DNA from: an uncultured Pseudomonadales bacterium
Lineage (GTDB): Bacteria > Pseudomonadota > Alphaproteobacteria > UBA2136 > UBA6156
Assembly (NCBI GenBank): GCA_964601735.1
Contig: CAZROO010000001.1
Location: 52,093 to 116,092 of the forward strand
Reading direction: 5' to 3'
Length of the DNA stretch: 64,000 nucleotides
Part shown: positions 35,142 through 45,952 of the stretch, piece after piece
Position numbering within the stretch: position 1 is the stretch's first letter
How the letters are laid out: every line of letters starts with the position of its first letter
Made by a program: the position numbers and the translations under genes
The notes under the pieces: generated by a model
The model's input: only the letters and a program-made list of their open reading frames with translations
Database searches by the model: none
What the model was told of the DNA's origin: nothing

Positions 35142-36646
35142 TGAAAAAAACTCACACTCCTCTTCGGCTTCATGCCAGCGAAGGCTGGCATCCACGCCAA
35201 AGCGGCGTTTCGGTTATCGCTATCCTCGCCTGTTTGACACTCACCGCCTGCGCCACCACCCAAACCGCCGCACCTGCCCGCTCGCCGCTGGTGCCCACGG
35301 GCGAACCCGGCGAGGTCATTGCCAGCGCCCACATGGCGCCGGTGCCGGAAGACAAATTGCACACCTACCGCGAAACCGACTGCGCCGGGCCCGGTCTCGA
35401 CGTCACCATCGAAACCGTCCGCAATGAAAAGAAATACCTGTTCGACAACCAGGGCCACCCCTGCACCCCGTCCATCGTGGTTTACGATGGCAACATGCCC
35501 GCCGCACAGCGCGCCCAGTCACAGGGTCTCGACCCCAACGTCGGCATCACCTTCCACGACAAACTCGGCCCGCTGCACGACGACACGTTCAAACCCGCGC
35601 CCCTGCTTAAAGTCACCACCACCGGCGGCCTCGTCGACGTCAGCGGCAGCAAGCCCGCCCCCACCCCGCGTGCCGAGGCCGACACCCTGGTCAAAACCCT
35701 CAACGCCTGGCAGGCCGACAGCCAAAGCGCCCAAAAAACGCTGGTGCAAAAGCACCTGCAACGCGAGCAGATGATGGCCGACGAAACCGCCCGCCAGATC
35801 GCCCGCGCCGGCAAGGCCGAAAACGCCGCCGAGCAGCAAAAGCAGGTCGACCTGCTCATGTCCCGGCTGCGCGAAACCGAACGCCAGTTGCAATCCGAGC
35901 AAAAAAACCACCAGGCTACGCTGGAAGAACAGCAAAACCAGGCCCAGCAAACCCAGGCCGCCGTCCGCCGCTTCCAAACCGACGAAGACGACCTCAAGAG
36001 CCAGCTTGCCGCCACGCAAGCCAGGTTGGCCCAGGTCGAAAGCATCAGCCAGCAACTGGCTGCCAGTAACGCCAAGCAGCGCGACGAATACCAAAAGCAG
36101 CTGGTGGCCATGTCGTCCGACATTAAAGCCGCCGAAGCCAAGGCCGACCAATCCCGCCAGCAGCTCATCTTCGCCGCCGCCAAAAAGGTCGCCGAGGCCG
36201 ACGAACTCGCTCGCGCAGCCTCACTTTCCGCCGCCGACAGCAAGGCCCGCGAAGCCGCCCGCCTCAAGGCCGAAGCCGACGCCAACCTCGACGCCGCGCT
36301 CGACCTGACTGCCGACGGCCGCCCGCGCGGCCTGCCCAACCCGGCCAAGGCGCCGGTGGCACTGGCCGACGTGCCCGTGGTCATCCACCAAAAAGACCAG
36401 CCGCTCGATGTCATCGTCGGTGCCATCCTCGCCCAGGCCGAATCCCAGTCCGGCAAATGGACAGCCGACTGGCAGCTCTCCAAAAACGCCCAGTTCATCC
36501 TCAAGGAAAAGTGGTCGCTGACCGCCGAGGCCCCGGTGCGGACGTTGCTCCAAAACCTCACCACACAGGTTAAAACCACACACAATCTCAATCTTAAATT
36601 CACCCAGTTCGGCCAGTCCCGCCTGCTGGTCATTACCGATGAATAG
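35141..36646 (+). CDS. lipoprotein with coiled coil and C-terminal TcpQ-like domain
   Basis: Lipobox LTLTAC, Gln/Ala-rich coiled coil, and a C-terminus ..WTADWQLS...LKFTQFGQSRLLVITDE. A palindromic element is inserted in the signal n-region. Confidence 0.5.
   Translation: MKKTHTPLRLHASEGWHPRQSGVSVIAILACLTLTACATTQTAAPARSPLVPTGEPGEVIASAHMAPVPEDKLHTYRETDCAGPGLDVTIETVRNEKKYLFDNQGHPCTPSIVVYDGNMPAAQRAQSQGLDPNVGITFHDKLGPLHDDTFKPAPLLKVTTTGGLVDVSGSKPAPTPRAEADTLVKTLNAWQADSQSAQKTLVQKHLQREQMMADETARQIARAGKAENAAEQQKQVDLLMSRLRETERQLQSEQKNHQATLEEQQNQAQQTQAAVRRFQTDEDDLKSQLAATQARLAQVESISQQLAASNAKQRDEYQKQLVAMSSDIKAAEAKADQSRQQLIFAAAKKVAEADELARAASLSAADSKAREAARLKAEADANLDAALDLTADGRPRGLPNPAKAPVALADVPVVIHQKDQPLDVIVGAILAQAESQSGKWTADWQLSKNAQFILKEKWSLTAEAPVRTLLQNLTTQVKTTHNLNLKFTQFGQSRLLVITDE
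35165..35197. repeat. 33-nt GAAG-loop palindromic element, in frame in a CDS
   Basis: CGGCTTC-ATGCCAGC-GAAG-GCTGGCAT-CCACGC; encodes RLHASEGWHPR in the signal n-region of the 35141 ORF. Confidence 0.8.
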
Positions 36647-36655
36647 TTGATTTTA

Positions 36656-36685
36656 TTGACATTTTTACCCCTGTCATCCTGTAAT
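36656..36685 (+). promoter_or_regulatory. sigma70-type promoter TTGACA-N18-TGTAAT
   Basis: Perfect -35 and 5/6 -10, about 85 nt upstream of the VirB2-like pilin gene; overlaps the CCTGTAAT octamer array. Confidence 0.5.
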
Positions 36686-43550: not shown

Positions 43551-43594
43551 TCCTGTAACCTGTAATCCTGTGACCCTGAAACACAGCCCTGTCA
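43551..43594. repeat. CCTGTAA-type 7/8-mer array plus CCCTGTCAGTTT box
   Basis: TCCTGTAA-CCTGTAA-TCCTGTGA-CCCTGAAA ... CCCTGTCAG. Confidence 0.6.
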
Positions 43595-43657
43595 GTTTTC
43601 TGCCCACGCCCTCTGACACCCTCACGCATCTCTGCTAGCGTCTTCCAAAACAAGAAC

Positions 43658-45952
43658 ATGGCCACCAAAACCAAAAAGCCCGCGCCCAAACCCAAGGGCA
43701 AACCCGCCGCCGCAAAACCCAAAGTGGCGCGCAGGGCCAGCTCCGGCAATCCGGTAACCCGGCAATCCGGTAAACCGGTAATACCCCAACGCCGGAGCAC
43801 TGACCGGCCTCAAACCACCGAGCAGCTCTTAACGCTCGACGCCGGCTACCAGCAGGCGCGCAGCAATGCCGCCACCTATTTGCATAGCCGCCGCCAGGCC
43901 GCCTTCGCCTTGGCCCGCCGCTACCACCTCGATGCCGACGATTTGATGCAGGAAGGCTACGAAATCCTCCTCACCTGCCTGCGCGACTTCCAGCCGCTGC
44001 GCAAAAACGATGAAACCGGCGAAGCCACCACCGTGCAATTCAACACTTTTTTCGGCGCCCGGCTCGAAGGCAAGGCGATGGAACTCCGCAACCGCGACCC
44101 CGAATACCAGGCGCGTCAGGCCCACACGGCCGACATGACCGACGAGGAGCGCGATAGCTTCCGCAAAAACCCGCCGCTGCTGGTGCAGCATCTCGACCAG
44201 GAAACGACGATGCAGGAGCACCTGCAATCCGAAGTCTCCGGCGCCCAGCGCGCCCGCACCACCAACGTGCGGCAAAAAATTTTGCAGGATAGCTACATCG
44301 ACCGCAAACTGACCGAACTCATCGCCGCCGAACGCGACGACCAGCGCCGTGCCGCGCTGCTGCAAGTGAAGGTCGGCGGCCTCTCCACTTTCGACGACAT
44401 TGCCTACCATTTCGGGGTGACCGACAGCCGCGCCAGCCAGATCCTCAACGACCTGATGGATGCGTTCTATGTCCAGCGCCTGCTTGATGGCGACCTCAAG
44501 AGCGTGGCCTACGACTTCCGCAAAATCAAAATGGCCGACAAGCGCGCGCTGCGCCTGCTGGCCGAGGCCATCAACAACGCGCCGCCGCCCCGCGCTCAGG
44601 CGCTCGCCGAAATCTTCACGCCCGACTACCCCGACGTCGCCACCCTCCTCGCCGCCCGCAATACCTCCGGCCCCATTCCCGTGAAGGCGGGAATCCAGGG
44701 GGAAGTTCACAGCGGCCAGGTGATGGTGCCTGCCGACCAACCCGAAAAGCTCTTCACCCCGCTCGACATCAACCTCTACCCGCCGGTCGAAATCGGTTGG
44801 CGCGAAACCGCCACGCTGTCGCCCCATCCTGTCACCTTCCGAGCGCCCGAAGAAAGCGACACCTCAAAAAATTCCGGCTTCATGCCAGCACAGGCTGGTA
44901 TCCACGCTCCTTCTTTCCCGGCCCATATTGAACGCCTCATGGCCAGCGGCCCCGAGCACTGGCCGCTCATTGTCACCGAGCAGGGTGTGGTTATCGACGG
45001 TGTTCGTCGCCTTGCCGCCGCCCGCGCCAAAAACATCGACCGCGTGCTCTGCCACGTCCACAAAATGGCCGAACCCGACACCGCCATCATGCGCGTCGTC
45101 CTCAACATGCGCGCCATCCGGCCCGAAAAACTCGATCTCTACTTCGCCATCGCCGCACTGCTCAGGCAGGGCCTGTCGCAGGGCAAGGTCGCGGCCGCAC
45201 TCAACACCAGTCGCCCCAATGTCATTGTCTATGCCAAGGTGGCCGAAAAAGCCGCGCCGGACCTCCGCCGGCTGTTCGAGGAAGGCCTTATCCAGGTTAC
45301 CAATGCCAGCGCCTGCGTCGACCTGCCCGCCAATACCCAGGCGGCTATTGCTCGTGCCATCCGCACCCTGGGGCCGGAGTGGTCCAAGGGCCCCAAGTTT
45401 ACCGACATGTTCAGTGCCGCCGAAACCGGCAAGCTCGAAAAATACCTGAAATCGGTCGGCGGTGACACCGGAGCGACAGCCGCGCACCAATTAGCGCCGC
45501 AAGACGCTATTTCTGCGCCGCAAACCGACAGTGCTGCGACAGCGCTGCGACAGTCCGGCATCAATCCTGCACAGGTACAGCACCTGCAAAATGCCCTGGT
45601 GGAGGCCGAAACCTGGGCCACCCGCCGCGACGCCACTATTGCTCAACAAATAAGCGAAATCAACGAGTTAAAAGATAAGGTCGGCAAGCTCACCAGCGAG
45701 CTCGAAGCCGCTCGCCTGCTCTCCCAGGCCGACCAGTCCACCATCCAGGCCTACCTCAAAGAAATCAAGTTATTTCATGGGGTTACAGAGCGTCTGCAAG
45801 CCGCCGCCCACCACATCCAGCAGGCTGCCAGGCCCCTTCGCTCACTCCAACTGACAATGAGGCAAACCCATGAAATGCAAGAGATTTGTGAGTCCATCGC
45901 CAGCCAGCTCACGGCCTTGCGGTTGGCTTTGCAACGCACCCCCGGCCAATAG
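43658..45952 (+). CDS. fusion ORF: basic N-tail + sigma-70-like regions 2 and 4 + ParB-like N-terminal domain/HTH + C-terminal coiled coil
   Basis: DDLMQEGYEILLTCLRDF (region 2.x-like), LSTFDDIAYHFGVTDSRASQILNDLMDAF (region 4 HTH-like), VVIDGVRRLAAARAKNIDRVLCHV (ParB-like), and GLSQGKVAAALNTSRPNV (HTH). Confidence 0.6.
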   Translation: MATKTKKPAPKPKGKPAAAKPKVARRASSGNPVTRQSGKPVIPQRRSTDRPQTTEQLLTLDAGYQQARSNAATYLHSRRQAAFALARRYHLDADDLMQEGYEILLTCLRDFQPLRKNDETGEATTVQFNTFFGARLEGKAMELRNRDPEYQARQAHTADMTDEERDSFRKNPPLLVQHLDQETTMQEHLQSEVSGAQRARTTNVRQKILQDSYIDRKLTELIAAERDDQRRAALLQVKVGGLSTFDDIAYHFGVTDSRASQILNDLMDAFYVQRLLDGDLKSVAYDFRKIKMADKRALRLLAEAINNAPPPRAQALAEIFTPDYPDVATLLAARNTSGPIPVKAGIQGEVHSGQVMVPADQPEKLFTPLDINLYPPVEIGWRETATLSPHPVTFRAPEESDTSKNSGFMPAQAGIHAPSFPAHIERLMASGPEHWPLIVTEQGVVIDGVRRLAAARAKNIDRVLCHVHKMAEPDTAIMRVVLNMRAIRPEKLDLYFAIAALLRQGLSQGKVAAALNTSRPNVIVYAKVAEKAAPDLRRLFEEGLIQVTNASACVDLPANTQAAIARAIRTLGPEWSKGPKFTDMFSAAETGKLEKYLKSVGGDTGATAAHQLAPQDAISAPQTDSAATALRQSGINPAQVQHLQNALVEAETWATRRDATIAQQISEINELKDKVGKLTSELEAARLLSQADQSTIQAYLKEIKLFHGVTERLQAAAHHIQQAARPLRSLQLTMRQTHEMQEICESIASQLTALRLALQRTPGQ
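44675..44697. repeat. related palindromic element (ATTCCCG/CGGGAAT stem), in frame in a CDS
   Basis: ATTCCCG-TGAAGG-CGGGAAT-CCA; encodes IPVKAGIQ. Confidence 0.65.
44885..44917. repeat. 33-nt palindromic element variant, in frame in a CDS
   Basis: CGGCTTC-ATGCCAGC-ACAG-GCTGGTAT-CCACGC; encodes GFMPAQAGIHA in the linker of the sigma/ParB ORF. Confidence 0.75.

Follow-up and report, generated by a model that had tools for sequence, protein, structure and literature searches.

The 64,000-nucleotide (nt) window analysed here, positions 52093-116092 of contig C1 in the genome assembly of an uncultured alphaproteobacterium, carries short palindromic repeats, four of which lie within protein-coding open reading frames (ORFs). 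These elements are repetitive extragenic palindromic (REP) hairpins of the CGTC-1 type, also designated NTS or Ssn-related motifs (SRM), and constitute non-coding DNA repeats. Their anatomy is that of the published family, they have been inserted recently, they co-occur with ssn genes and bracket some of them, no Y1 transposase was found alongside them in the genome, and their orientation follows the GC skew. It is very probable that hairpins of the CGTC-1/Ssn type have recently multiplied in this organism, with in-frame copies surviving in coding DNA and with the nucleases of the Ssn family as their partner. The family of elements, its occurrence inside genes and the nuclease that partners it have all been published before, and only the polarity of the copies and the size of the recent single-copy burst stand out.

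A preliminary description of the window had listed six palindromic elements, five of which have proved to be members of one family. Three near-identical 33-nt units are present, the third of which had been placed at 44885, a position 10 nt too high and inside the stem; its true start is 44875. Two copies with variant stems accompany them, with core hairpins at 42821-42840 (ATCCCGAC/GTCGGGAT) and 44675-44694 (ATTCCCGT/GCGGGAAT). The sixth element, at 39377, had been taken for an inverted copy and is an unrelated hairpin. The elements are as follows.

35165-35197, plus strand: subfamily A repeat, cGGCTTC-ATGCCAGC-GAAG-GCTGGCAT-CCACGC, encoding RLHASEGWHPR in a lipoprotein signal-peptide n-region (ORF 35141-36646)
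38558-38590, plus strand: subfamily A repeat, as the preceding copy but with a ccatgc end, encoding GFMPAKAGIHA in a signal-peptide n-region (ORF 38526-39299)
44875-44907, plus strand: subfamily A repeat whose loop is ACAG and whose stem includes one G-T pair, cggcttc-ATGCCAGC-ACAG-GCTGGTAT-ccacgc, encoding GFMPAQAGIHA (ORF 43658-45952)
42816-42872, plus strand: subfamily B repeat, main hairpin CTGTC-ATCCCGAC-GAAG-GTCGGGAT-CCACGATTATAC, intergenic
44669-44698, plus strand: subfamily C (NTS-like) repeat, GGCCCC-ATTCCCGT-GAAG-GCGGGAAT-CCAG, encoding PIPVKAGIQ in a variable linker (ORF 43658-45952)
39377-39401, no strand assigned: unique non-family hairpin, CAATCCGCAT-TCTTC-ATGCGGATTG, 55 nt upstream of an ssn-like gene

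The four copies within ORFs introduce no stop codon, and translation has reproduced the peptides first read from them (RLHASEGWHPR, GFMPAKAGIHA, IPVKAGIQ and GFMPAQAGIHA) together with DASLRWHEA and PAFAGMKP on the opposite strand. The 33-nt unit is open in five of its six reading frames. In the subfamily B copy, which sits just past the stop of a UvrD-like helicase ORF (41064-42806), the main hairpin is followed by a second small one, GTGCC-GTAG-GCAC, and then by TCAAACC. The hairpin at 39377 was ruled out as a family member by its 10-bp stem, its 5-nt loop, the lack of family tag and CCA tail, and its single occurrence in the genome.

Anatomy and copy number of the repeat family

The assembly comprises 1.2 Mb in 27 contigs at approximately 60% GC and is estimated to be 89% complete, for a genome of about 1.3 Mb. 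A strict structural scan (AT-N6, a purine-rich 4-nt loop and N6'-AT, allowing one stem mismatch, with C preceding the stem and CC or CA following it) has revealed 109 copies, so that uniqueness to the window is excluded. A fixed IUPAC pattern retrieved 93 copies, and its reversed control none. A repeat copy coincides exactly with the end of several contigs and scaffold gaps (e.g., C4:17, C2:42656, C22:2342 and C13:~12020), and since the repeats fragment the assembly in this manner, the true copy number is higher than 109. Within the window, the 20-nt core pattern has six strand matches against 0.14 expected from dinucleotide shuffles, and none of 100 shuffles reached six. Single-strand DNA folding gives the 8-bp hairpin with energies of -5.6 to -13.6 kcal/mol and z values of -1.3 to -3.9.

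The upstream tag carries C at position -1 in 109/109 copies (as the search required), T (81) or C (28) at position -2, and C, G or T at position -3. The tags seen are CGTC, TGTC, CCTC, CTTC and CCCC, the last four accounting for most copies, and in the relatives G005 and G010 they are mostly the canonical CGTC. Of the 251 perfect 8/4/8 hairpins in the genome, 95 begin with AT. The loop is GAAG in 66 copies, GCAG in 29, GGAG in 6 and something else in 8, while the successive tail positions are C in 102, C in 109 and A in 106 of the 109 copies, the first two partly by construction given the required CC or CA. Almost all copies are singletons rather than dimers.

The most numerous stem types are ATTCCCGC (22 copies), ATCCCGGC (17), ATGCCAGC (15), ATCCCGAC (10) and ATGCCGAC (10), and others occur. 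Each type carries flanks of its own, a covariation that is as expected from the copying of a few source copies. Subfamily A, cGGCTTC-ATGCCAGC-GAAG-GCTGGCAT-CCACGCC, corresponds to the 33-mer noticed at the outset. Subfamily B runs on its 3' side into a second small hairpin (…CCACGATAATACGTGCCGMAGGCACTCAAACC), which makes it a two-hairpin unit of about 60 nt; its consensus, drawn from 18 copies, extends approximately 35 nt beyond the main hairpin. Subfamily C fits the NTS consensus CGTCATTCCCGCGMAVGCGGGAATCYRG.

These features place the elements among known repeats. CGTC-1 REPs have been described as consisting of a CGTC tag that changes to TGTC or CCTC, a stem of 8 bp that opens with AT, a loop of 4 nt and CCA as the tail (Di Nocera, De Gregorio & Rocco, 2013, BMC Genomics 14:522; PMC3733652). 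They have been equated with dRS3 of Neisseria and RPE-6 of R. conorii, and CGTC REPs have been reported within genes, often DNA-repair genes, with no dedicated transposase; what spreads them was a question left unanswered in that study (PMC3733652). In the present family, the tag, the AT-initial stem, the 4-nt loop, the CCA tail and the lack of a Y1 transposase were all found. The oriented upstream tag, the C right after the palindrome and a small single-domain GIY-YIG gene flanked by the motif, which together characterise SRM, were found as well. As in Rickettsia palindromic elements (RPE), palindromic repeats lie in frame within protein genes and are missing from orthologs. The REP-like and RPE-like nature proposed in the preliminary description is thus borne out, the anatomy being equal, point by point, to that of the published CGTC-1 REPs.

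Coding copies and their absence from related genomes

The whole genome of a sister species in the same genus (1.335 Mb) was compared, and it holds two copies against 93-109 here, which indicates that the expansion is recent, in line with the sequence flux suggested earlier. Both flanks are colinear in the sister genome at 57 of the 109 sites, and the present genome is longer at 55 of these. In protein comparisons, the sister orthologs lack 17 internal coding copies and show gaps of 9-52 residues. The hosts, named from Pfam, are LeuRS, UvrA, UvrC and RecJ with two copies each, GlmM, MurB, ATP synthase gamma, NuoG and MiaA, a GrpE-like protein, an ORF on contig C22 and, with two copies, the 764-aa ORF of the window; a third, more degenerate copy is present in uvrA. 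Net length differences at the internal coding sites are all multiples of three. A unit of 33 nt, itself a multiple of three, had been put forward as the basis for frame preservation; the unit does not always have this length, and inserts range from 27 to 156 nt. Truly coding copies number about 19-20 of approximately 110 (18%) against a coding density of 83%, a strong depletion; at least 4 of 13 calls of N-terminal coding copies are artefacts of ORFs over-extended by a crude gene caller.

In the window, three genes host repeats.

35141-36646, plus strand: 501-aa lipoprotein of a chromosomal locus resembling a type IV secretion system (T4SS)
38526-39299, plus strand: 257-aa secreted protein right after TraE (the TraK position), with no Pfam match
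43658-45952, plus strand: 764-aa protein conserved across the order (41-75% identity), with two repeats

For the first two, the syntenic locus was compared in five relatives, and both signal-peptide n-region insertions, recognised as such at the start, are missing from the orthologs. The five lipoprotein orthologs have signal peptides of 20-25 aa without the insert. The TGATG stop/start overlap of the lipoprotein gene with its upstream neighbour is kept in the orthologs, and with no in-frame start codon separating repeat from lipobox, synthesis of the protein entails translation of the repeat. In its mature part, the TraK-position protein shares 94% identity with the sister ortholog, which starts MKFLYTLLIALLLPVAAFA|DT, and five of five orthologs, with signal peptides of 19-25 residues, have no insert. 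The start of this gene abuts the upstream stop (TAA-ATG), as in the orthologs, and translation could alternatively begin at an ATG within the repeat. In the 764-aa protein, the copy at 44875 corresponds to a clean gap of 54 nt (18 codons) in the sister ortholog (75% identity), and the GFMPAQAGIHA segment, at residue ~408, is a gap in nine of nine aligned orthologs. At the 44675 copy, the sister ortholog has unrelated sequence of equal length with no net length change, which shows that this copy is not a simple insertion.

Could the peptides be ancestral, or a convergent low-complexity motif to which the DNA palindromy is secondary? The unchanged length at the 44675 copy would suit this explanation, as would a few other coding copies that differ from their sister orthologs by merely -3 to +9 nt. 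The comparison with orthologs nonetheless finds the sequence missing at the 17 internal sites and from both signal peptides, in relatives ranging from the same genus to other families. In addition, the reading frame and the strand in which the 33-nt unit is translated vary from one host gene to another, and 72% of the copies are intergenic. An ancestral origin is accordingly refuted except at the few sites without length change, and as an account of the family it is hardly credible. The insertion in frame into coding DNA at tolerant sites, as originally claimed, is upheld by the lack of the inserts in orthologs, both those of the sister species and those of other genera.

Two further observations concern the host locus. 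The 764-aa ORF has a weak sigma-70-like match (TIGR02937) that falls below cut-off. Among 41 genomes searched, this ORF and the surrounding T4SS-like genes were found at 41-75% identity in 29 (17/17 of the family and 12 more of the order) and in none outside the order. Since it is conserved throughout the family and order, the locus looks like a chromosomal lineage trait and not a recent island.

Ssn-like genes and orientation of the copies

The Ssn family of GIY-YIG nucleases has been described by Chenal et al. (2025, Nat Commun 16:2388; PMC11893778). The SsnA enzyme of N. meningitidis binds only the single-stranded DNA form of the NTS hairpin CGTCATTCCCGCGMAVGCGGGAATCYRG and cuts it a few nucleotides upstream of the hairpin, leaving the reverse strand, double-stranded DNA and RNA uncut; the RNA form of the hairpin is not bound, and cleavage is dependent on the base triplet that precedes the hairpin (PMC11893778). 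The typical gene arrangement is NTS-ssnA-NTS (PMC11893778). Six ssn-like genes have been detected in the present genome, and inverted pairs of the ATTCCCGC type tightly bracket ORFs of about 98 aa at C6:47973-48329 and C8:55610-55982. The two bracketed genes and the one in the window are given below.

C6:48009-48305: repeat-bracketed ssn gene, single-domain GIY-YIG (Pfam E 5.7e-17), paralog of the next
C8:55646-55939: repeat-bracketed ssn gene, single-domain GIY-YIG (Pfam E 1.4e-15), paralog of the preceding
39456-39779 of the window, plus strand: ssn-like gene for a putative single-domain GIY-YIG protein of 107 aa, divergent paralog of the repeat-flanked Ssn genes (tblastn E 7.6e-21)

The proteins of the bracketed genes match the UPF0213 structures 1zg2 and 1ywl in the PDB. 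Two ssn genes on contig C13 have a repeat directly upstream, one of them also with a truncated inverted downstream copy at an assembly gap, and one further divergent ssn-like gene has no flanking hairpins. The product of the window gene is 44% identical to the C6 paralog over its full length (BLASTP E 4e-27) and retains the Tyr, Tyr, Arg and Glu positions as judged by eye, with no Pfam match at 1e-5 and no NCBIfam match. The hairpins that flank it are not those of the repeat family. A direct repeat lies on either side of it, at 39320-39357 and 39800-39834, consisting of a GC-rich hairpin (TAAGGGGGC-GCGAA-GCCCCCTTA and TATGGGGG-CTTG-CCCCCATA, respectively) followed by AAAGTGAGTC; the 10-mer occurs three times in the genome and the hairpin type four times. 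This direct repeat may be the boundary of a different cassette or a pair of terminators.

The association between repeats and ssn genes extends to relatives. Nine related genomes have ssn homologs with cognate tagged hairpins on either side. Across 41 genomes, all seven with at least six repeats carry ssn, and 16 of the 17 without ssn have no repeat (Fisher p 0.006 for the presence of repeats against that of ssn). A search for the Y1/RAYT transposase (PF01797) returned none in this genome or in 28 other genomes of its order; in the control search, 6 of 14 reference genomes had it. The repeat-bracketed GIY-YIG protein was considered as a new 'missing enzyme' and rejected as such, the link having already been published (Chenal et al., 2025; PMC11893778).

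The orientation of the copies follows the GC skew and not gene direction. In 99 of 109 copies, the tag and GNAG loop, which mark the strand known to be cleaved by Ssn, are found on whichever strand is locally C-rich (binomial p 1.5e-19). The skew has the same sign in the '+' and '-' genes of a contig, which indicates that it is of the replication type. All 30 copies that the crude gene caller placed inside ORFs obey it even though 11 are antisense to the host gene, so that orientation is set at the DNA level and not by the transcript. On contig C8, repeat orientation flips exactly at the skew flip, which removes two nominal exceptions; other exceptions are four inverted-pair partners (two of them flanking ssn genes), two copies at near-zero skew and one singleton with a stem mismatch. 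In other genera of the family, the same orientation is seen in 27/27 copies of G010 and in 18/21 of G005, where one of the three exceptions is a partner in an ssn-flanking pair. Replication strand and skew polarity go unmentioned in PMC3733652, PMC11893778 and a 2025 REP survey, and the polarity rule was not found in the literature.

By Lobry's rule, assumed here, the G-rich strand is the leading strand. The sole support for this in the present genome comes from 16S, rpsL, one tuf, rpoBC, atpD and gyrB, all of which lie on the G-rich strand. With a leading G-rich strand, it is the cuttable strand that serves as leading-strand template, and the single-stranded, exposed lagging-strand template bears only the uncuttable complement. 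Genes as a whole show a weak strand bias that slightly favours the C-rich strand (493 vs 407 genes), and tRNA genes are unbiased (12 vs 11), both of which are unusual if the G-rich strand leads. The skew switches from negative to positive at ~130 kb on C1, outside the window (thrS, glycosyltransferase, cox2), and at ~10 kb on C8 (clpX, clpP). No origin marker genes were found near either switch, and the switches could be rearrangement breakpoints, an origin or terminus, or assembly joins. A Novosphingobium chromosome contains mostly inverted dimers; its singletons are '-' in 10/11 cases in the first half and '+' in 5/7 in the second, with a local skew too noisy for strand assignment.

As a general rule, replication polarity of Ssn-type hairpins is advanced tentatively, its chances being put somewhat below even: single copies would be tolerated or inserted only with the cuttable strand on the C-rich strand, and opposite copies would survive only as inverted-pair partners, when degenerate, or where the skew is near zero.

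The positions of the intergenic copies have been considered in terms of RNA function, since they lie mostly after genes, in unidirectional or convergent gaps, and show a tendency, weaker than the link with skew, to point the same way as the gene before them (38 of 44 unidirectional gaps; baseline 58%; p 9e-5). Transcribed elements under selection as mRNA 3' stabilisers, attenuators or terminators, with the coding copies as by-products, would produce such a bias, and the same has been argued for REPs generally (PMC3733652). The orientation of the ORF copies, however, obeys the skew even where these are antisense, and the sister species is without almost all copies, so that no general function need be assumed for them. 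SsnA does not bind the RNA form (PMC11893778), and no relevant Rfam family match was found for the repeats. A primarily RNA-level role is consequently regarded as improbable.

Mobilisation of classic REPs or REPINs by a Y1 HUH transposase of the RAYT type, acting through the single-stranded lagging-strand template, is less probable still. The complementary strand does read (C)GTGG followed by a palindrome, in the manner of GTAG-headed REPs, and strong replication-strand polarity is reminiscent of the IS200/IS605 family. Yet PF01797 is lacking even from the repeat-rich genomes among those searched, the CGTC strand, which is the one that Ssn recognises, lies on the C-rich strand, opposite to the expectation for IS608-type elements, and the copies are nearly all singletons and not REPIN dimers. 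Neither a GTAG tag nor a repeat-flanked RAYT gene was found.

Mechanism and comparison with known systems

Taking into account the published properties of SsnA, the following course of events may be proposed for the multiplication of CGTC-1/Ssn-type hairpins. As single-stranded DNA, one strand would fold into a hairpin of 8 bp with a 4-nt loop, an unpaired 5' tag and a 3' CCA tail, and small GIY-YIG Ssn nucleases would recognise this folded strand and cut it just upstream of the hairpin. Repeats would be copied from a few sources and land mostly between genes, and also in coding DNA, where the unit encodes short peptides rich in Pro, Gly, Ala, Lys and His; only in-frame, stop-free insertions in tolerant segments such as loops, linkers and signal-peptide n-regions would survive. 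Ssn itself, or a process dependent on it, would spread the repeats, and their uniform orientation would reflect Ssn acting on single-stranded DNA at the replication fork. Two explanations of the polarity may be offered. Selection might act against Ssn cutting of the lagging-strand template, which fits the direction of the bias, and inverted pairs could in that case escape by folding into a long duplex hairpin. Alternatively, insertion might be coupled to lagging-strand synthesis.

Several observations weigh against this account. Nucleotide alignments with the sister genome show no target-site duplication and no fixed insert length or footprint, and several coding copies differ from the sister ortholog by just -3 to +21 nt, which is not explained by simple cut-and-paste of a 33-nt unit. 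In the 89%-complete assembly, no ssn gene has flanking hairpins of the stem type of subfamily A or B (33 copies, three of them in the window). Most tags here deviate from CGTC, and cutting by SsnA depends on the base triplet before the hairpin. Finally, the relatives G012, G013 and G014 hold 3-6 ssn homologs and zero pattern matches. Of the ssn genes examined in these three genomes, most are without flanking hairpins, and one in G014 is flanked on each side by tagged hairpins of the same orientation. The remaining genes may have become orphaned or domesticated, or may have cognate motifs that went unrecognised.

The genome provides a clear example of a published phenomenon, in which hairpin repeats lie in frame within essential genes and signal peptides, with the sister species supplying the empty sites. 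It also constitutes a natural experiment, with about 100 recent single-copy insertions in a genome of ~1.3 Mb that has six Ssn paralogs and no Y1 transposase. In addition, it reveals an orientation rule with hardly any exceptions, linked to replication and not to transcription. Should this rule prove general, the role of Ssn nucleases beyond transformation in Neisseria and the spread of CGTC REPs would be open to direct testing. If the polarity is read correctly, Ssn would patrol single-stranded DNA at replication forks in vivo, the layout of the repeats would be the footprint of self-cleavage avoidance or of lagging-strand-coupled insertion, and a long-missing clue to the spread of CGTC REPs, RPE-6 and dRS3 would be at hand.

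Among known systems, REPIN/RAYT and IS200/IS605 elements share with the present family hairpins recognised as single-stranded DNA, an enzyme gene between inverted repeats and an orientation tied to replication. They differ in that the enzyme here is GIY-YIG and not HUH Y1, RAYT is lacking, the mobile unit is a single hairpin, and the recognised strand lies on the C-rich (lagging-sequence) strand. The RPE also occur in alphaproteobacteria with small genomes, as in-frame palindromic repeats in housekeeping genes that are tolerated in loops and N-termini, but the classic RPE-1 is longer and encodes tens of residues. The equivalence with RPE-6 is that stated in PMC3733652. In a Rickettsia endosymbiont genome, 286 pattern matches were found in balanced orientation (139 vs 147).

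The likeness to NTS/Ssn systems includes the consensus of subfamily C, the small (~95-aa) single-domain GIY-YIG genes between inverted hairpins, several enzyme and hairpin variants per lineage, and an exact 27-mer shared across many phyla. This 27-mer, GTCATTCCCGCGMAGGCGGGAATCCAG, was found on more than 120 contigs, including those of Pseudomonadota, Planctomycetota, Dehalococcoidia, Nitrospirales and Patescibacteria; it also occurs in a metagenome-assembled genome (MAG) of Nanoarchaeota and on a contig labelled as a Klebsiella pneumoniae MAG, both of which may be binning contaminants. In N. meningitidis, 2% of NTS lie inside genes (PMC11893778), compared with about 18% of the copies here, and the present ~1.3-Mb genome differs further in having six Ssn paralogs. 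With the CGTC-1 REPs, the family shares a mainly alphaproteobacterial distribution, a copy number that is patchy between related species, the lack of a Y1 transposase, and in-frame intragenic copies that favour DNA-repair genes (uvrA, uvrC and recJ here) together with tRNA synthetases. It departs from them in consisting of singletons instead of head-to-head dimers, in tags that are mostly CTTC, CCTC, CCCC or TGTC, and in an intragenic share of approximately 18%.

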